Shown: positions 1-30,341 of the stretch, one piece after another
Layout: each line of letters starts with the position of its first letter
Position numbering within the stretch: position 1 is the stretch's first letter
NCBI GenBank assembly: GCA_045533675.1
Contig: JAZSIF010000058.1
Coordinates: forward strand, 2,119-66,118
Length of the DNA: 64,000 nt
DNA from: Eubacteriales bacterium
Lineage (GTDB): Bacteria > Bacillota > Clostridia > Oscillospirales > CAG-272
Direction of reading: 5' to 3'
Notes under the pieces: model-generated
Seen by the model: only the letters and a program-made list of their open reading frames with translations
Databases searched by the model: none
What the model was told of the DNA's origin: nothing
Position numbers and translations under genes: made by a program

Positions 1-10
1 CCGTGTCACC

Positions 11-697
11 GTGATCGTTGCCGTTGTACTGGTCGCCGCCCTGACGCTCATCATCGGCATCACTGTTGCCACCAACCGTTCCAAGAAAAACGAGCTTCCT
101 CTACCCGATGACACAACCCCCTCCACGGACACGCCCGCAGACACCGAGCACAATGAGCCCGAAGACACGAAGCCCACAAAGCCCTCCGACACCCAGCCCC
201 AAAAGCCTGCCGACACGTCGGTTTCGGTAGACGATTCCCTCCCCTCCTTCGTGCTTCCGGTCAGCGGTGTTCTCTCCAAAAAGCACGACCCCGAGCTTCA
301 GGTTTATTCCGTAACCATGAATGATTACCGCGCCCACATCGGCGTAGATATCGTTACCGAAAAGAACGCGCCTGTCTATGCTGCCGCCGATGGCACCGTG
401 CAGAAGATCTGGAAGGACGTTCTCATGGGCTACTGTATCGCCGTACAACATAACGGCGACTGCCTGACTGTCTACAAGAATTTGGCGGAGACCCTGCCCG
501 ACGGCATCGCCGAAGGTGTTAAGGTGCGCTCGGGTCAGCTTATCGCCTCGGTTGGTGAAAGCGCCATGGTGGAGGTTGCCGAGGAACCCCATCTCCACTT
601 CGAAATGACCATTGAGGATTTGGCAGTAGACCCACTGGAGTATTTCAATGAAAAAGCCCTGGAGTCCCTGTCCATTGACGCGTCTTACGGGGAGTAA
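11..697 (+). CDS. M23 family metallopeptidase with N-terminal membrane anchor and Pro/Thr/Asp-rich linker (5' end may lie at or before the window edge)
   Basis: 228-aa ORF. C-terminal LytM/M23 signature HIGVDI ... EEPHLHFEM. Hydrophobic N-terminus IVAVVLVAALTLIIGITVA. GTG start at 11, with the frame open back to position 2. Confidence 0.8.
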   Translation: MIVAVVLVAALTLIIGITVATNRSKKNELPLPDDTTPSTDTPADTEHNEPEDTKPTKPSDTQPQKPADTSVSVDDSLPSFVLPVSGVLSKKHDPELQVYSVTMNDYRAHIGVDIVTEKNAPVYAAADGTVQKIWKDVLMGYCIAVQHNGDCLTVYKNLAETLPDGIAEGVKVRSGQLIASVGESAMVEVAEEPHLHFEMTIEDLAVDPLEYFNEKALESLSIDASYGE

Positions 698-22135: not shown

Positions 22136-22178
22136 TGACGGGAGTCCAATAGCCCCCCTAATTGACATGGTATACTAA

Positions 22179-22210
22179 GAATCCCCCAAGGCAAATGCCT
22201 TGGGGGATTC
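22179..22210. terminator. Perfect 14-bp stem / 4-nt loop hairpin between convergent citrate synthase and giant-protein genes
   Basis: GAATCCCCCAAGGC-AAAT-GCCTTGGGGGATTC, followed by T-rich TTAGTTGATTTGTTTATTTG on the plus strand. It lies 14 nt beyond the stop (22224) of the minus-strand gene. Confidence 0.6.
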
Positions 22211-22223
22211 TTAGTTGATTTGT

Positions 22224-25200
22224 TTATTTGCTTACTTTTCTTTGGATCGCCTTACCGCCCGTCAGGGTGATCATCTTAATTGCCTGCACGGAGAAGGAAT
22301 CCGCTATTACAGTCAATGGCTTATCCAAATGTCCGTCTGCCAAAACCTTTACTCGTTGCGTCTTAGCGGAGATCAGCTTCTTTGCCTTCAAGGCATCGAG
22401 ATCCACCGTCTCTTCAGCATCAAACGTCTCATTGATTTCGGAGATATTGATGATGGACTTGAGTCCTGTCGCGTTGGCACCGCCCGCGGTTTTCAGAGCA
22501 GCCATTGCCACAGTATCCTCCATCATAGCATCTGCCGTATCCACATCAACCGTCTCTACCACTTCAACCACAGGTTCAGGTTCAGGTTCAAGTTCAGGTT
22601 CGGGTTCAGGCTCGGGTTCAGGCTCGGGTTCAGGCTCGGGTTCAGGCTCGGCCACCGGCACGATAATCACAGGTTCCTCAGCAACAGGTTCCGAGGTAAC
22701 GAATTCTTCCTCTCCCTCATCGTCCGCTACCGCCGCAACTACGGCTGCCGCCAGCTTGCGCGCGCGAATAACGAAGAAGTAGATGAAGGTCAAAACGATA
22801 AGGATGATGAGAATGAGGATCAACAGCCACCATACCCACCAAAGTCCAAACACCATCGCCCTCGTAGCCTCCGCTTGAGCATAGACCGTCAAGCTCTCGG
22901 CATTGTGGTCGGTGAGCACGTAGTCGCTCCACAGAACGTCATTCTCTCCCATTTCCACATACCACTCGTATCGATATCCCGATGCCTTACCCTTGAAATC
23001 GGGGATCGGCTTCTCGGTCTCGCAAGTTAGGGTCAAAACCTCCTCACTTCCGTCGGGATGCTTAAAGGTTACCGTGTATTCAATAGGAGCATAAACCGCC
23101 TTGACATTGATTCCCAACGCGCCGTTCTTGAGATCGTAAGCGCTCCACTCGACGAGTTTGCCCTCGCTGTCAACGACATACCATGCACCACGGTAGCCGA
23201 CCTTAGCGGGAAGCTCCACCGGTGTCCACGCATCAAGAACAGTATAGGTCTTTTCTATTTTGTCGTCTCCGATCACAAACGTAACCTTATACTGAATAGG
23301 TAGGATCTTTACGTACAGCTTTACGCTTGTTCCGCCCTTGACCAGCTCATACGCTGTAATCTGAGGGTCGGTGTCAGCGGGCGTGTCGCCTATCTGCACG
23401 AACCATGCCCCGTAGTAGCCCGCTTGGGTCACCTCAATCGAGGGAGGTGTAGGCACGCTGATCACGGTGCCGACTCTCTCCACAACGGTTCCGTCGGGAT
23501 AGGTAAAGGTGAAGGTATACTCCAGAGGAATCTGCTTTGCCTCTACCTCAATCGTGGCATCGGTATCGGTCAGCTGATAATTCTTCCACTCGACCTCACC
23601 CACATACCAACGGTATTCGTAACCGGGCGCGCAATCCGTAGGAAGATCCGCGGGAGTGAGAGGATCATTGATCGTGTAAGACTTCTCCACACGGCTTCCG
23701 TCGGGGAGAATAAAGTCCACGCGGTAGGATTTCGCCGTATAGACCACGTAGACCGTAACCTCGCGTTCACCGTCAATCAGACGATAATCCATCCACAAGG
23801 GGTCAGTGTCGGCAGGCGCCGTACCCATCTGCACGTACCATGCGCCCGTATAGAAGGGCTTGGCGGGTACATCGGGCTGGGTCTTCGTATCCTTGGTCAT
23901 GGTCAGAACGGTGGGGGTGTCGCCGATTCCAATAAACGTTACCGTATATTGGAGGTTGACAAATTCACCGAACACATCCACGTCACCCGTGGTCAGGCAA
24001 GCCTTGGTCCAGAGGACCTTTTGACCGTTGTCCATGTAGTACCAGCGGAACTCGGTGCCTGCGGGAGCCGTTACCGCGGGAATCTCAAAGGACTTGTCAA
24101 GGACCGTATAGGTCTTGGTGACAACATCCTCGGGAGCCGAACCGGGCAGGTGGAAGCGCACCTCGTACTCATCGATGGTCTTCCGAAGCTTAATCGTCAG
24201 ATCGGCAGGCGTTTGGTAATTGATTCCCTCCCACGTTGTGCCGAAGAGGTTGCACCAATCGTAAGTATAGCCGGACTCGGTCGGCAGGGTGGGAACAATA
24301 CCCGATACCATACCTTCAACCGTATAGATGACCTCCCCCATGAGATTGTCGTCCAGGTCCTTGAAGGTCAGGGTATACTCATGCGCCGTATAGGTGGGCA
24401 TGATGTTGATCCGTCTGTCAGCAGCAGTTGCCGTTTCAAGGTCAATGCCCAGATCAGAGAGGAAGGTAGCGGGATCGAAGCCCTGTGCGGTCAATGCGGG
24501 AGTGTCGCCATTTCCCGCGAAATACCAGCCCGCAAAGTCATAGTAATCGACCGAAGGAGGCAGGATCAGATCCACACTGGTTTCATTGCCGTACTCGTCT
24601 CTCTGATAGAAGCCAGCATAGGTATAGAAGTACTCGGCAAGCAGATTGCCGTCCTTATCGTACACGTAGAGTTTGTTGTCGTCTACCGCACGGCGAATCT
24701 CGGTAAAGGTCTTTTGGATGGTGTCCGCGTTGTCGTTGGTCAGCGTTTCGGGGAAGCTGTACTTTGCCCACTTGCCATCGGCATCCACGTAATACCATTC
24801 GTAGGTGTAGGAGCCAATCTCGTCACCGGTAGGCTCGTTCAGCATCCGGGTAAGCTCCGCGTAAACCTCCGGCCAGTTGTTGGCATTGTAAACCACGGTG
24901 ATTTCTCCCGCGGCACGGGTCGCGCGCAGAAGACTCATGGTTTGTATACGTTTCAGTGTCAGCGTGTAGTCAATGGCAACGCCATACTCGTAAACCGTAA
25001 AGTCACGAAGCTCGGAGGCATCGAAATCGGTCGCGGGATCCCACACCTCGCTTGCGCTGAACGTTCCGTCATTGTTTTTGTCAATGTACCAAACATATCT
25101 CGTATACAGCTTATTGTTCTCGCTCGTTACCTCATGCAAAGCGGGAACATTCTTGTTCGCCAGTGTTTCGGTATTGGCAAAGTAGCCAATCTCTTCGGGA

Positions 25201-28200
25201 GTTCCCGCCACGCCCGACACATTGTTCTTCAAGGGAACAAAGGTAATGGTATACTCGGGAAGCGCCTTCTTTTCCTCAACGAAGTCGAGGTTGCATAGCC
25301 ACTCGTTCGCCCCCGTTTCGAACTGATCGGGAGTCCATTCCACTCCGTTCTCATCTAACCAAACATGGGTATATCCCTCGGCGGGAGCAGTATGAATCGA
25401 ATTTACCCAGGCAACGAAAGCGCTTTCCACGGTCTCTGCCGTAACGGTGTATTTGCCCAGCTCGTTATAATTTTCGTCATAGAAGGTGTAAGTGTATTCC
25501 TTATACGTTCCATGCTCCTTCAAAGTAAAGCTCTTGGCGGGGTTGGCAGTAATGTTCTCAAATGCCGTCTCATATGTTCCGTTACCGTCCAGATCCGCAC
25601 GCCAGCTATAGATCATGGCAGCGGTGTCTTGCTGCATATAGCTACGGATCTGACTCAAAATATTTTGCCAGCTATCCCGCGACGTATAGGTCAGGATCTC
25701 ATTATCCTTATTGGATGCAAAGAAATCCAAGGTAATGGTATACTCGGTATATACCTTTCTCTCAAGAATTTCCACATTCTCTTCGAACCTGTGTTCGTTG
25801 AAAAATTTCTCCCAAGTCTTGCCGCCAAAATCCCATTCATAATGGAAGTCGGGATCGGGATCCGTCAACGCGGGAAGCGCAATGCCCGTGGCTACGGTAT
25901 TCTTGTCATAGGCAACCCTCTCCGTCGTTCCGTTCAGATAGCGGAACACAAAGTAATATGTTATGAGGTCGGCTTTTTCCCGAACCTCCAGATCCTTTGC
26001 CATGTTGAAATCAAAGGAATCTGTGGTTGCCGTAAAACGCTTGTTATCGGTCACGTTCCACCACATATGGGTGTAATGCTCCTCGGGAGCCGTAGGCAAA
26101 GCGGGAATGTAATCGGTTACCGCGTTTACCCAGTTCTCCACGGTATACTTTGCCTCCTGATAGAGGTTGCCATTCACATCATAGAAGGAGATCGTGTAAA
26201 CGAAGTAGGTCTTAATCTGCTCAAACACACCCAAGGAATCGAGCGCATTTGCGGGATTTTTCAAATAGCTCTTGATCCATGCAAGGTCACGAACCGTGCC
26301 CTCCAGAGCCCAATCGTACTTGTAGCCATGTCCTGGCGCATCGGTTTCGGGGATGGTCAGCGTATCAACGGTCTCTACGGTAAAGGGCACCTTGATGGTC
26401 TCATTCCCCTTCAAGAAGGTCAATTCGTAAGGAATAGTCTTATAGGTAACATACACAGTCTGAGACTGCGCCACACCGATCAATGCCTCGTAATCAGGCC
26501 ATACGACCTCATAACCGCGGATCCCATCGGGAGTCTTGGGCGCTCTGGGAAGCGCGGTATCACCCTCCTTATAAAGAATATTATCAAGCGTCCTCTCGCT
26601 TCCGTCGGGGGCTTTCAGTACGAAGATCATTTCATACTCATCCTCTTCCAAGGGAGGGGTCACAACGATGTCCATAGCGGGCATGGTCGCGGGAAGCCTG
26701 TCTTTGAAGCGTTCCAGATCCAATCCCGACACGCTCGTCAGAACATCAAGAGACATACCCGCGGGCAGGAGAAATACTTCTTCTCCGCCCTGACGGTCAT
26801 CCAGCGTCAAAGAGTAGAGCCCCCTAAAGGTCACTTCTGCGCTAAAGGTTCCCGACAGATCCGCCTTAAGCATTCCCGCGGGCAGCCCCAGCTTGGAGGA
26901 TACCTTGTCACCAAAATCAAAGTCATAGGATGCCGAGGGCAGGGTAAAGTGTCCCGCGCCGTCGTACATTTGGTAAATGCTAAAGGTTTTAATTCTTTCG
27001 GGCAATCTCTCCGCAAGAGCTTTCGCCTTGTCTGCCAACCGCTTCCAGCCGTCTACGGTACGAAGCTTTTCGAGAATAGCGTCTACACGGTCACGAGCAC
27101 CGTCGGGGAGTTTCTCCATAGCGCCGTCCGCTTTTTCCAGAACGGCATCCAGTTTTTCGTTGACTGCATCCGAAAGGGCTTGAAGCTCCTCATCGCTGAA
27201 GGTATCCAACATCCGCACCACTTCGGGCAGAGTCATGTTGGAAGCCTCCATCAGTTTCCCCTTCAAAGCGGCAGGCAGACGATTGGATTCCAGCACCCTG
27301 GCGTAGAGTGTCATAACCTTAGAGGGAAGCACAGAGCTGACGTGCAGGTCAAGGTCATCCTCGCCCACCTCCAGATGGAAGAGGTCCTTCTGGCTCCGTG
27401 CCAGCCTTTGCAGGTTTGTAAAGTCACCGTCGAAACAAATCTCAAAGCCCAGCTTTACATCACCGTCATTTCGGAAGGTGGTATGTAAAACCATGCCTAC
27501 GATAATGTCTCCCGATTCCATTTCGCAGAAGCGTTCCACATCGGGAATCGAAAGGAGCAGCGCGCGGACCGCCTCTTCCAGGTCAACGATACCGTTCTTA
27601 AATACCACGGAATCGTTAATCTTGATCGTTCCCACCTCTTCTACAACGATCTGCAGAAGGATCTGCTTGATATCAGCGGCAAAGCTCTTCAGCTTTGCTT
27701 TGTCTGCAATCACGTCACGAAGAAGGGTCTTTGCCAACTCCTTTGCGGCGGGAGAGGTCAGAAGTCCGTTGTCTTTTGCCAGCGCAAACAGCTTGTCGGT
27801 GCCGATCTTATTCGCGATCGCGGTAAGCTGCTCAGGGGTATACCAGCCAAGAATCACATCGTAACCGCCCGCCCAGTCCTTGATCTGGTCAAAGGTCACG
27901 TACTGCATCAAGAGATCGCCCAACTCATCAACCAAAAGTCCCTGGTCCAGCATGCCTGCCAAAGCCACAAGACCCGCGCTCTTCTTCTCTGCCTCGGTAG
28001 CATCGGGCTTTTCTACACCGCCGATGGCAATGGCGATCTGATCAAAGCTCAGGGTTCCATCGGAGATCAGCACCATCATACCCGATTTCTTGGAGGTGCC
28101 GTCGGTGGTAGCAAACAGGACGTCAATCAGCTCAATGGCACCAAGGCAGTCGAGGAACGGCACAATGCCCGTCTTCTCAATAATTTCGGAGGAATGAGGC

Positions 28201-30341
28201 ATCAGTATGTTGATAATCTCCTCATACTCCATTTCCTTGAATATCTCTTGATAATCCGAAGAGGTGAGATTCACCAACGCGGCCAAGTCACGGATTCGTT
28301 TCTCCTTGATAGCGGCTTCCTCCTCGGAGTCTCCCTCCTTGGGGTCGACCAGCTCATGGATCAGTCCCGACAGGTCCACTTTATCACTGGTAGCAACCAC
28401 CGTCAGATCCACATGCGCAAAGAAATCAATAGGGTCGATCTGACCTTGTTCGATTTGGTCGAGGAAGGATTCCTTTAACAGCTCCTTCACTCCGGCAACC
28501 GCCAGCGCATCCGTTGCCATGGCTGCCAGCTCTTCTCCGCTCAATCCAAGATCGGAAATCTTGATTCCGCTATCGGAGAGCACACGGCTCACATCCACCA
28601 AACCCTCATCGAGAATGTCATCCAGCTTGATGCCGTATGCGGAGAAATTCAAAATCTCCGAAACTTTAAGCGCGTCCTTGTTCGCAAGGAGCTGCTCCAA
28701 CGTAATGGAGCCAGGATACTTGTCGAGCAATTCGCCTACATCTACCAGATTGTTCGCCAGCAAAGTTTCCGGTGTAATACCCTTGTCCTGGGCAACTTCA
28801 GCCACCGTAATCAGTCCGTTGGCAAGCCATTCATCCAGAGTGTCCAACTCATGATCGCGGACTTTTTGCTTCTGCTCAGGTGTCAAAGCGTCAAACTTGC
28901 TTTCAAAATATGCCTCATCGATGCCGTACGCCGTGGCAACCGCATTTTTCTCGTCCGAAGTCATACCATTGTAAATGGTGGTAACATCCAGATCCAAAGA
29001 AGAAATATCGATCTCATTGACATTGAGATGCTTATTGGCGATCAATGCCGCTGCCGTAATCGCATTGTATTTCTTCAGAAAAGCAGAGAGTGTCTCCGTC
29101 GTGACCTCGGGCTTAACCGCATTGGTCAGAACCAACGTCTTGCCCTCAAGAAGCTTCGCCAGACGTGTATTATCCATGTACTTGGAAATACTGAACCCTT
29201 GGCTTCCTACCAGCTTGTCAACAATTTCCTTTGTGACAACCATGGAGGCAACGGTATAAAAGTCGGGATCCTCGATCAATCCATCGACCAGCCCTTCCGC
29301 CTCGAGCAGCTCCTTGACGACCGCATAGTCGTTTTTCTTTACCAAATCACGAAGCGCGTCCTCGCCAAAGATCTCAATCAGCTTTGCATTGGTCAGAACA
29401 TCCTTGCGATGTGTAAATATGTACTCTACCGTTTCCTCAGTCATCAGCCATTCGGGATGCTTCGCGACCTGTTCAAGAATTGCCTCGTTCTCGAGCAGCT
29501 TCTTTAACGGATTATCATCCGCAATCTCTTGTCCCTCTTCCGGAACAAAGGTCATCAAATAATCCTTAAGCTTTTCACGGAGAGACTCGTCGCTCATAAT
29601 TTTTTGCTTGATCTTGTCGCCAACCGCGTTCACCAGCGCATTCTTATACTGCTCATCGGACAGGATCGAACTCACCACCGAATCCGTCACCAAATTGGGG
29701 AGCGCCGCCATGACCTGGCTCTCATGCTCAGAAAGGAGACGATCAATGGCATCCGCCAACACGGCCTCCATAAACGACTCGTCGCGCAAAAGTCTTCCCT
29801 GCACCTCATCGGTCAAAAGATCCTTCAGCACGGGCGCGAGAAGCGCGTTCAATTCACGGTTGAATTTTTCCTCGTCCTCTACGCCGTCAAGGAGTGCGTC
29901 AAAATCCATCACCGCCAAGATTTCATCCAGCGTGACCAGCTTTTCTACAAACTCCGGGTTCAGGAAATACTTCGACAGAAGATTTTCGGGAAGCAAAGCC
30001 ACCAGCTCGTTGAGCTCCTCGGCGCTCAGATATTCGGAGACAAGCGTCAAAAACGTCTCCTTAGATGCGCCGTCCTCCAAGGCAGCCAGAACTTCCGCGG
30101 GGACAAAATCCTTTAGCTCCTCCTTTGTGAGATCGCCATCCGCCAATAAATCATACACCTTTTGGGGATTCAACTTCACCCGAAGAACTCCATCCTTGAA
30201 TTCGATGGTGTAATAGGGCGTTCCGTCTTCATCAGCCGCAGAGGACCCCACGGAAAAGGCACCTACGGGCAAGCAGATCGAAGCCAGCATGATTATCGCC
30301 ATCACAAACGGAAGAATTCGTTTCAGCAACAATTGTTTCAT
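22224..30341 (-). CDS. Giant (2705 aa) secreted, C-terminally membrane-anchored protein with about 16 Flg_new/InlB-B-type repeats and a cytoplasmic uL15-like tail
   Basis: Signal peptide MKQLLLKRILPFVMAIIMLASICLPVGAFSVGSSAA. About 1150 aa of acidic, Leu-rich sequence with no domain I recognise. About 16 repeats of pattern Y-x-[VL]-T-F ... G-Y-x-[FY]-x-[GAEW]-W-[YF]. TM segment MVFGLWWVWWLLILILIILIVLTFIYFFVI followed by RARK, then a 180-aa tail. RBS AGGAGA. Confidence 0.85.
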   Translation of the reverse strand: MKQLLLKRILPFVMAIIMLASICLPVGAFSVGSSAADEDGTPYYTIEFKDGVLRVKLNPQKVYDLLADGDLTKEELKDFVPAEVLAALEDGASKETFLTLVSEYLSAEELNELVALLPENLLSKYFLNPEFVEKLVTLDEILAVMDFDALLDGVEDEEKFNRELNALLAPVLKDLLTDEVQGRLLRDESFMEAVLADAIDRLLSEHESQVMAALPNLVTDSVVSSILSDEQYKNALVNAVGDKIKQKIMSDESLREKLKDYLMTFVPEEGQEIADDNPLKKLLENEAILEQVAKHPEWLMTEETVEYIFTHRKDVLTNAKLIEIFGEDALRDLVKKNDYAVVKELLEAEGLVDGLIEDPDFYTVASMVVTKEIVDKLVGSQGFSISKYMDNTRLAKLLEGKTLVLTNAVKPEVTTETLSAFLKKYNAITAAALIANKHLNVNEIDISSLDLDVTTIYNGMTSDEKNAVATAYGIDEAYFESKFDALTPEQKQKVRDHELDTLDEWLANGLITVAEVAQDKGITPETLLANNLVDVGELLDKYPGSITLEQLLANKDALKVSEILNFSAYGIKLDDILDEGLVDVSRVLSDSGIKISDLGLSGEELAAMATDALAVAGVKELLKESFLDQIEQGQIDPIDFFAHVDLTVVATSDKVDLSGLIHELVDPKEGDSEEEAAIKEKRIRDLAALVNLTSSDYQEIFKEMEYEEIINILMPHSSEIIEKTGIVPFLDCLGAIELIDVLFATTDGTSKKSGMMVLISDGTLSFDQIAIAIGGVEKPDATEAEKKSAGLVALAGMLDQGLLVDELGDLLMQYVTFDQIKDWAGGYDVILGWYTPEQLTAIANKIGTDKLFALAKDNGLLTSPAAKELAKTLLRDVIADKAKLKSFAADIKQILLQIVVEEVGTIKINDSVVFKNGIVDLEEAVRALLLSIPDVERFCEMESGDIIVGMVLHTTFRNDGDVKLGFEICFDGDFTNLQRLARSQKDLFHLEVGEDDLDLHVSSVLPSKVMTLYARVLESNRLPAALKGKLMEASNMTLPEVVRMLDTFSDEELQALSDAVNEKLDAVLEKADGAMEKLPDGARDRVDAILEKLRTVDGWKRLADKAKALAERLPERIKTFSIYQMYDGAGHFTLPSASYDFDFGDKVSSKLGLPAGMLKADLSGTFSAEVTFRGLYSLTLDDRQGGEEVFLLPAGMSLDVLTSVSGLDLERFKDRLPATMPAMDIVVTPPLEEDEYEMIFVLKAPDGSERTLDNILYKEGDTALPRAPKTPDGIRGYEVVWPDYEALIGVAQSQTVYVTYKTIPYELTFLKGNETIKVPFTVETVDTLTIPETDAPGHGYKYDWALEGTVRDLAWIKSYLKNPANALDSLGVFEQIKTYFVYTISFYDVNGNLYQEAKYTVENWVNAVTDYIPALPTAPEEHYTHMWWNVTDNKRFTATTDSFDFNMAKDLEVREKADLITYYFVFRYLNGTTERVAYDKNTVATGIALPALTDPDPDFHYEWDFGGKTWEKFFNEHRFEENVEILERKVYTEYTITLDFFASNKDNEILTYTSRDSWQNILSQIRSYMQQDTAAMIYSWRADLDGNGTYETAFENITANPAKSFTLKEHGTYKEYTYTFYDENYNELGKYTVTAETVESAFVAWVNSIHTAPAEGYTHVWLDENGVEWTPDQFETGANEWLCNLDFVEEKKALPEYTITFVPLKNNVSGVAGTPEEIGYFANTETLANKNVPALHEVTSENNKLYTRYVWYIDKNNDGTFSASEVWDPATDFDASELRDFTVYEYGVAIDYTLTLKRIQTMSLLRATRAAGEITVVYNANNWPEVYAELTRMLNEPTGDEIGSYTYEWYYVDADGKWAKYSFPETLTNDNADTIQKTFTEIRRAVDDNKLYVYDKDGNLLAEYFYTYAGFYQRDEYGNETSVDLILPPSVDYYDFAGWYFAGNGDTPALTAQGFDPATFLSDLGIDLETATAADRRINIMPTYTAHEYTLTFKDLDDNLMGEVIYTVEGMVSGIVPTLPTESGYTYDWCNLFGTTWEGINYQTPADLTIKLRKTIDEYEVRFHLPGSAPEDVVTKTYTVLDKSFEIPAVTAPAGTEFRWYYMDNGQKVLWTKACLTTGDVDVFGEFVNLQYTVTFIGIGDTPTVLTMTKDTKTQPDVPAKPFYTGAWYVQMGTAPADTDPLWMDYRLIDGEREVTVYVVYTAKSYRVDFILPDGSRVEKSYTINDPLTPADLPTDCAPGYEYRWYVGEVEWKNYQLTDTDATIEVEAKQIPLEYTFTFTYPDGTVVERVGTVISVPTPPSIEVTQAGYYGAWFVQIGDTPADTDPQITAYELVKGGTSVKLYVKILPIQYKVTFVIGDDKIEKTYTVLDAWTPVELPAKVGYRGAWYVVDSEGKLVEWSAYDLKNGALGINVKAVYAPIEYTVTFKHPDGSEEVLTLTCETEKPIPDFKGKASGYRYEWYVEMGENDVLWSDYVLTDHNAESLTVYAQAEATRAMVFGLWWVWWLLILILIILIVLTFIYFFVIRARKLAAAVVAAVADDEGEEEFVTSEPVAEEPVIIVPVAEPEPEPEPEPEPEPEPEPELEPEPEPVVEVVETVDVDTADAMMEDTVAMAALKTAGGANATGLKSIINISEINETFDAEETVDLDALKAKKLISAKTQRVKVLADGHLDKPLTVIADSFSVQAIKMITLTGGKAIQRKVSK
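22572..22649 (-). repeat. In-frame hexanucleotide tandem repeat encoding (EP)9-EL-(EP)3
   Basis: The plus strand reads GGTTCA/GGCTCG units repeated 13 times. It lies within the cytoplasmic tail of the giant protein. Confidence 0.9.

Follow-up and report, generated by a model that had tools for sequence, protein, structure and literature searches.

The subject of this work is the C-terminal tail of a giant surface protein encoded in a stretch of 64,000 nucleotides from an uncultured Eubacteriales bacterium (Oscillospirales, CAG-272; assembly GCA_045533675.1, contig JAZSIF010000058.1, positions 2,119 to 66,118 of the forward strand), which we refer to as the window. The gene is a single uninterrupted open reading frame whose translation, P0001, has 2705 amino acids (aa). 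The transmembrane (TM) helix of P0001 is the only strong hydrophobic segment C-terminal of its signal peptide; a borderline hydropathy window at aa 726-744 (score 1.91) has charged residues within it. After the positively charged cluster RARK, 176 residues remain, comprising an acidic stretch, a run of Glu-Pro repeats and a C-terminal module whose sequence ends at 22227, next to the stop codon of the giant gene (22224-22226). An earlier inspection of the DNA made without database searches, the sequence-only reading, had described the TM helix, RARK, the acidic tail and a run (EP)9-EL-(EP)3 at 22572-22649, and all of them were found exactly there. The features of the locus are collected in Table 1.

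Table 1. Features of the giant gene, its tail and the adjoining hairpin (positions in the window).
Feature	Position	Strand	Properties or basis
Giant gene (P0001)	22224..30341	-	signal peptide, ectodomain of ~2460 aa, one TM helix, 180-aa tail; single open frame
Signal-peptide-like N-terminus, aa 1-35	30237..30341	-	MKQLLLKR, hydrophobic core, SSA; sequence reading, hydropathy window 4-22
TM helix, aa 2498-2525 (FGLWWVWWLLILILIILIVLTFIYFFVI)	22767..22850	-	Kyte-Doolittle score 3.44 (19-aa window)
Positive cluster RARK, directly C-terminal of the TM helix	22755..22766	-	Lys/Arg here in most family members
Acidic proline-rich tether, aa 2530-2590	22572..22754	-	62 aa, 52% Pro+Glu, net charge -18
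Family-specific N-terminal extension: two short acidic helices (VDVDTADAMMEDTVAMAAL) and a Gly-rich turn, not uL15	22464..22571	-	family alignment, AlphaFold
uL15 C-terminal-domain-like fold with remodelled last helix AIKMITLTGG	22227..22463	-	Pfam, TIGR01071, PDB sequence matches, AlphaFold, Foldseek
Perfect 19-bp hairpin separating the giant gene from the citrate synthase gene, which is convergent to it	22174..22215		T-run after it on the + strand only

By sequence profile and by predicted fold alike, the C-terminal module is truly homologous to the globular domain at the C-terminus of the ribosomal protein uL15. The Pfam profile PF00828 (Ribosomal_L27A) matched aa 2630-2698 (22248-22454) with 54.6 bits (E 1.5e-14; cut-off 21.5), the match spanning positions 1-71 of the 72 in the profile; 7 residues lie between the end of the module and the stop. 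When the tail was compared with all PDB chains by phmmer, nearly all of the matches were uL15 or eL18 chains, the best of them being the uL15 of D. radiodurans (E 5.7e-8), which aligned on its C-terminal half. The last 115 aa, modelled by AlphaFold with 29 family tails as input, had a predicted local distance difference test score (pLDDT) of 91.3 and a predicted template modelling score of 0.83. Among the top 50 PDB matches that Foldseek returned for the predicted module, all were uL15 or eL18 with probability 1.00 and a root-mean-square deviation (rmsd) of 1.4-2.1 Å over 72-79 columns, as exemplified by Listeria 8uu5_N (1.4 Å, 72 columns) and M. smegmatis 5o60_M (1.5 Å, 73 columns). The likeness to the C-terminus of uL15 that the sequence-only reading had proposed was borne out by the Pfam profile, by the PDB sequence search and by superposition of the predicted structure.

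The tail is a homologue of uL15, but it is not the uL15 of the cell. The equivalog model TIGR01071 gave 47.6 bits on the tail (41.3 on the whole protein), below its cut-off of 77.95, and its match on the tail was limited to model positions 74-142 of 144. The source genome (1.72 Mb, 96.7% complete) has three places with PF00828, namely rplO, the P0001 tail and the tail of a paralogue on contig C20. The canonical rplO, which the sequence-only reading had wished to see checked, is present and intact on contig C6; it encodes 146 aa scoring 173 bits with TIGR01071 and lies in the gene order rplR-rpsE-rpmD-rplO-secY, whereas the tail ends a stand-alone giant gene. With the canonical gene intact, the idea that the tail substitutes for a missing rplO is ruled out. 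Moreover, the basic Gly/Arg/Lys-rich N-terminal extension of uL15 is absent from the tail, acidic helices and the tether standing in its place, and canonical uL15 sequences grouped in a single clade of a phylogenetic tree (support 98/90), separate from the tails. The best explanation is that the globular C-domain of uL15 gave rise to the tail as a paralogue that left the ribosome.

An HMMER scan with the last 108 aa over 1.84 billion cluster representatives (clusters at 50% identity) gave 1603 matches at E<=1e-3 and 765 clusters at E<=1e-10. As most of the 150 best matches aligned over query residues 1-105, the conserved unit is longer than the uL15 domain. The additional part has the consensus VDVETADxLMSDxxA for its acidic helices, which AlphaFold placed at residues 10-16 and 19-25 (pLDDT ~90), and the residues D19, D24 and A27 were 82-97% conserved in 182 tails. 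The unit can accordingly be defined as A-D-x-[LM]-[MI]-x-D-x-x-A followed by a uL15 fold ending in A-[VI]-K-M-I-x-L-[TA]-G-G; P0001 conforms to it with TADAMMEDTVA ... AIKMITLTGG, located behind the TM helix and the tether at the C-terminus.

Comparing the 182 tails column by column with canonical uL15 from Clostridia (15 sequences), we distinguished what was kept from what was remodelled. Common to both were N47, F55, G58, V61, L66, K80, L82, G85, L87 and K89, together with L91-T92-V93, A95, F98-S99, A102, I106 and G110-G111; being mostly hydrophobic residues or glycine, we read these shared positions as the probable core of the fold. The canonical-only basic positions, that is, the connector RLPKRGFxN, K90 and K94, were missing from the tails, and D19, D24, A27, G41, K67, K69, A83 and the remodelled last helix were fixed in the tails only. 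This helix, AKEKIEAAGG in canonical uL15, reads AIKMIxLTGG in the tails, where K104, M105 and L108 are conserved at 95-98% and T109 at 88%; the exchange of E-K-x-E-A-A for K-M-x-T-L-T makes it more hydrophobic and basic. The positive charge of canonical uL15 resides in its N-extension (net charge +13, against -1 for the C-domain), and the corresponding values in P0001 were +3 for the uL15 part of the tail, -6 for the acidic helices and -18 for the tether. Three members with a canonical-like last helix (the C20 paralogue, P0055 and P0058) also lacked the acidic helices. This covariation suggests that the new acidic helices may pack on the remodelled last helix. The C20 paralogue, which is the second tail of the source genome (C20:2389-5838, plus strand; locus L002, 1-1752), belongs to a secreted protein of 1149 aa, and its last helix reads AREKIERDGG.

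Within the tether of P0001, the run (EP)9-EL-(EP)3 corresponds to aa 2565-2590. Its DNA is a tandem array of a 12-nt unit, GAGCCTGAACCC, present in 6.8 copies with a 94% match; thus, of the hexanucleotide repeat claimed by the sequence-only reading, the tandem repetition stood and the clean hexanucleotide did not. That the length of the linker is variable, as the same reading anticipated, was apparent from the closest orthologue, which has a tail 85% identical and carries (EP)3, as compared with 12 EP units in P0001. Across 141 family members the tether had a median length of 40 aa, 39% Pro+Glu and a net charge of -7. We propose that the Pro/Glu segment would act as a spacer whose length may drift through repeat slippage. 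Matches of the tether to TonB, TonB_N, PARP, ClfB and similar families were rejected as compositional and below cut-off (PF16031 scored 25.5 bits, its cut-off being 33; the scores of the NCBIfam TonB models fell far short of theirs), and the Pfam and NCBIfam profile searches found no TonB C-terminal domain in P0001.

The fusion of a uL15-like module to a giant protein, which the sequence-only reading regarded as unexpected, is real, but it is not a one-off, since it belongs to a large family already flagged by annotation pipelines. In the GTDB species genomes there were at least 575 tail loci, the best 80 of which all came from metagenome-assembled genomes (MAGs) of uncultured Clostridia, Eubacteriales or Oscillospiraceae, obtained, where the source was named, from ruminant, deer, chicken and rabbit guts. 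No cultured host was found among these best 80 genome loci and 391 small-protein clusters, all of them metagenomic. In every member the module was C-terminal, behind a TM helix and a spacer, and three architectures were recognized. Architecture A, to which P0001 belongs, consists of a signal peptide, a giant ectodomain, one TM helix, the Pro/Glu tether and the module; architecture B (170-200 aa) has only an N-terminal TM helix, the tether and the module; and architecture C comprises a TM helix, an acidic linker, 1-3 copies of a domain of ~150 aa and the module. This undescribed and presumably cytoplasmic domain (YxxSFxAxLIQ ... RGKxLxxYLALDPxxYxxTKY) sits just before the module (L053:5494-5955, L065:5503-5964, L081:5149-5610 and L083:2981-3442; P0050-P0056) and had no Pfam match. 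It was predicted with a pLDDT of 92.2 as a weakly YjbR/DUF1801/frataxin-like fold (2fki, E 0.03, probability 0.99), a similarity too weak for a function to be assigned.

A word-indexed search retrieved 58 giant relatives of 1500-4259 aa, with PF00828 in all but two and PF09479 (Flg_new) in many; although so many homologues that share the tail have Flg_new, the ectodomain of P0001 had no Pfam match to it at E<=1. The same layout was found in orthologues of 2800-4259 aa from other MAGs, P0002 (2800 aa) having a tail 85% identical. Long frames ending in an additional PF00828 copy were detected in 30 of the 37 genomes of the same genus, in none of 24 genomes from other families of the order and in no other genome of an even 200-genome sample of the class, which indicates that the family is patchy and concentrated in certain lineages. 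Since orthologues with this layout exist in other MAGs and in 30 of the 37 congeneric genomes, an assembly chimera was ruled out, as was, given the E-values, a chance similarity. The NCBI and JGI pipelines label such proteins 'uL15 family ribosomal protein' or 'ribosomal protein L15/L18E', which is a systematic misannotation of membrane proteins. A literature search for uL15-like membrane proteins of this kind found no relevant paper.

The small proteins of architecture B provided a genomic context for the module. Their genes lie in a conserved operon found at 25-27 loci (e.g. L018:4511-7063, L019, L034, L061 and L068), in which a TM protein of ~165 aa, a SipW-like signal peptidase and the TM-uL15-like protein are followed by one to five TasA/camelysin-like genes; these assignments come from profile matches (SipW-like NF046067, E 2e-18; TasA/camelysin PF12389; SipW-cognate signal peptide TIGR04088). 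In some of the sipW-tasA-like loci, another SipW-like gene lies further downstream. The presence of the small members within such operons links the module, at the level of the family, to the biogenesis of sortase-independent surface fibres.

A second piece of context was the distribution of sortase (PF04203). There was none in the source genome, which is 96.7% complete, and only 3 of the 37 genomes of the genus (the source genome, G000, and G001-G036) had one, as compared with 22 of 24 from other families of the same order. Sortase was present in 4 of the 50 tail-bearing genomes reached through their loci (2 of the 19 with architecture B among them) and in 97 of 200 genomes of an even sample of the class, a difference with p = 3.6e-8 in a Fisher test without correction for phylogeny. 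This anticorrelation between tail and sortase is a strong lead, not a proof. In P0001 itself no LPXTG motif precedes the C-terminal helix (YAQAEATRAMVFGLWW).

Because P0001 has a signal peptide, one TM helix and RARK behind it, hydropathy and the positive-inside rule support a cytoplasmic tail, in agreement with the sequence-only reading. The topology of the C20 paralogue is ambiguous, as its tail is preceded by hydrophobic segments at aa 897-915 and at aa 946-964, both with a Lys/Arg cluster behind them. For the small members, the orientation of the N-terminal helix is read from no more than a modest Lys/Arg bias.

Taking the remodelled module and its context together, we tentatively favor a role for the tail as a cytoplasmic docking module of sortase-independent surface structures. 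According to this proposal, the giant ectodomain would be exported by Sec and anchored through the single TM helix, and the folded tail on the inner face would bind a conserved cytoplasmic partner via the surface of the remodelled helix. This putative partner is judged likelier to be a protein than rRNA, and docking onto it would anchor, cluster or position sortase-independent surface proteins and fibres. Several points weigh against this proposal. The partner is purely putative and its binding inferred; N47, K80 and K89 are conserved in both the tails and the Clostridia uL15, and some contact surface of the uL15 type could therefore persist. The topology calls are hydropathy readings throughout, and in a few members, among them the C20 paralogue, the tail follows two hydrophobic segments and would be extracellular if each of these crossed the membrane. 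No conserved functional neighbour was found beside the giant tail genes, only the synteny of housekeeping genes within the lineage, and no TasA-like gene was found in the source genome, which means that the link to fibre operons comes from other lineages. Finally, shared ancestry confounds the difference in sortase frequency, with members of the same genus among the 50 tail-bearing genomes, and the completeness of those MAGs is not stated.

The persistence of uL15-type residues would suit a different role, in which the tail were a membrane-bound receptor for 23S rRNA, for uL15-free late pre-50S particles or for whole ribosomes, near the sites where huge secreted proteins or subunits of fibres are synthesized. 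This we consider unlikely. True uL15 homology and fold speak for it, as do the three residues just mentioned and the core KxL..G.L.K..TV.A.FS, kept in tails and Clostridia uL15 alike; that the module is so highly conserved in unrelated architectures suggests that its partner is universal and conserved, the module is associated with genes of secreted proteins, and the domain that accompanies it in architecture C has a YjbR-like predicted fold, YjbR being a family annotated as nucleic-acid-binding. Against it, the basic N-terminal extension (+13) is missing, the tail, the tether and the added helices are strongly acidic, the canonical-only basic positions (connector RLPKRGF, K90 and K94) are lost, and the uL15 site of mature ribosomes is filled by the cell's own intact uL15. 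Being at the extreme C-terminus, the module could be of no help to its own nascent chain, and the suggestion in the sequence-only reading that it tethers the protein or its nascent chain to ribosomes was not supported, as the tail is translated last and is acidic, with the basic extension missing and the basic positions lost. More doubtful still is an extension of the receptor idea in which gut Clostridia that lost sortase would bind large ribosomal subunits or late pre-50S particles at the membrane, in the manner of a bacterial ribosome receptor, and would concentrate translation, or park ribosomes, under the export sites of giant adhesins and TasA-like fibres, the small TM-only members acting as dedicated receptors and the giants carrying their own.

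Nor does it seem probable that the tail works without a separate partner, as a passive stopper against the pull-out of the TM helix or as a self-associating clustering domain. The constant position of the module at the C-terminus, behind a TM helix and a spacer, and its occurrence in lineages without sortase-mediated wall anchoring would agree with such a function, and small members made only of TM helix, tether and module would fit homotypic contacts; yet a stopper has no need for the 88-98% conservation of the surface positions K104, M105 and T109 across different proteins, nor for a dedicated small gene inside fibre operons. Very improbable, in our judgement, is an extracellular tail that would bind wall or matrix from the end of a Pro/Glu-rich wall-spanning segment. 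Pro/Glu-rich segments are typical of the wall-spanning regions of Gram-positive surface proteins, some members have two hydrophobic segments before the tail, and the Lys/Arg bias that orients the helix of the small members is modest; against these points, the signal peptide and exactly one TM helix of P0001 and most giants put the tail opposite to the ectodomain, Lys/Arg clusters follow the TM helix, and the tails of other members carry the YjbR-like domain, whose solved relatives come from E. coli, B. subtilis and Listeria.

With respect to the surroundings of the giant gene, its neighbours in the window are ftsK, a citrate synthase gene, a DUF4234 gene and thrS. The hairpin that separates it from the citrate synthase gene is likely a terminator common to both; the flank TAGTTGATT of the hairpin region adjoins the stop codon of the giant gene. 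The N-terminal part of P0001, an acidic helical region of ~1150 aa, had only a weak match to DUF445 (E 0.002), which was below cut-off. Another secreted protein of the source genome (2205 aa; G000 contig C34:4376-10993, minus strand) has a late hydrophobic segment at aa 2012-2030, with RHS/YD-repeat-like motifs just before it and a C-terminal region of ~175 aa that is not uL15-like.

It is rare for domains of ribosomal proteins to occur outside the ribosome. In the present case, one half of uL15 was copied, lost the arm that penetrates rRNA and was remodelled; in uncultured Clostridia of the gut it now caps the predicted cytoplasmic ends of hundreds of surface and membrane proteins. New in this work are the 105-aa unit with its co-varying parts, the columns that distinguish canonical uL15 from the tails, the quantified sipW-tasA context and the sortase anticorrelation across genome sets. 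Taken with the absence of sortase, the connection to fibre operons points to a sortase-independent and so far undescribed means by which abundant bacteria of the animal gut anchor or organize surface structures, and if the partner were the ribosome after all, the tail would represent a new kind of bacterial connection between membrane and ribosome. There is also a practical consequence: PF00828 is in common use as a single-copy marker, and the extra copies could therefore distort contamination estimates, or inflate marker counts, for these MAGs.

In comparison with known systems, P0001 resembles TonB in having an (EP)n run beside a membrane anchor; unlike TonB, it lacks the TonB C-terminal domain, its spacer would be cytoplasmic instead of periplasmic, and the profile matches are below cut-off. 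It shares with the LPXTG substrates of sortase the character of a giant secreted repeat protein with a Pro-rich spacer and a C-terminal helix followed by a positive cluster, here RARK; it differs from them in that P0001 has no LPXTG and its genome no sortase, that a 180-aa tail with a folded module follows the helix, and that the spacer is predicted to be cytoplasmic. The small tail members, located between a SipW-like gene and one to five TasA-like genes, recall the tapA-sipW-tasA operon of B. subtilis, for which, to our knowledge, no uL15-like component is known; the tail of P0001, in contrast, sits on a stand-alone giant gene in a genome without a TasA-like gene. The closest likeness is to uL15/RplO itself (TIGR01071, PF00828), with which the tail shares the signature N..F..G..V..L ... 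K.L..G.L.K.LTV.A..FS..A..I...GG and, at an rmsd of 1.4-2 Å, the predicted fold. It departs from uL15/RplO in comprising the C-terminal half only, which is attached to a secreted protein of 2705 aa after its TM helix and acidic tether, in carrying two extra acidic helices and AIKMITLTGG in place of AKEKIEAAGG, and in being encoded outside the spc operon.

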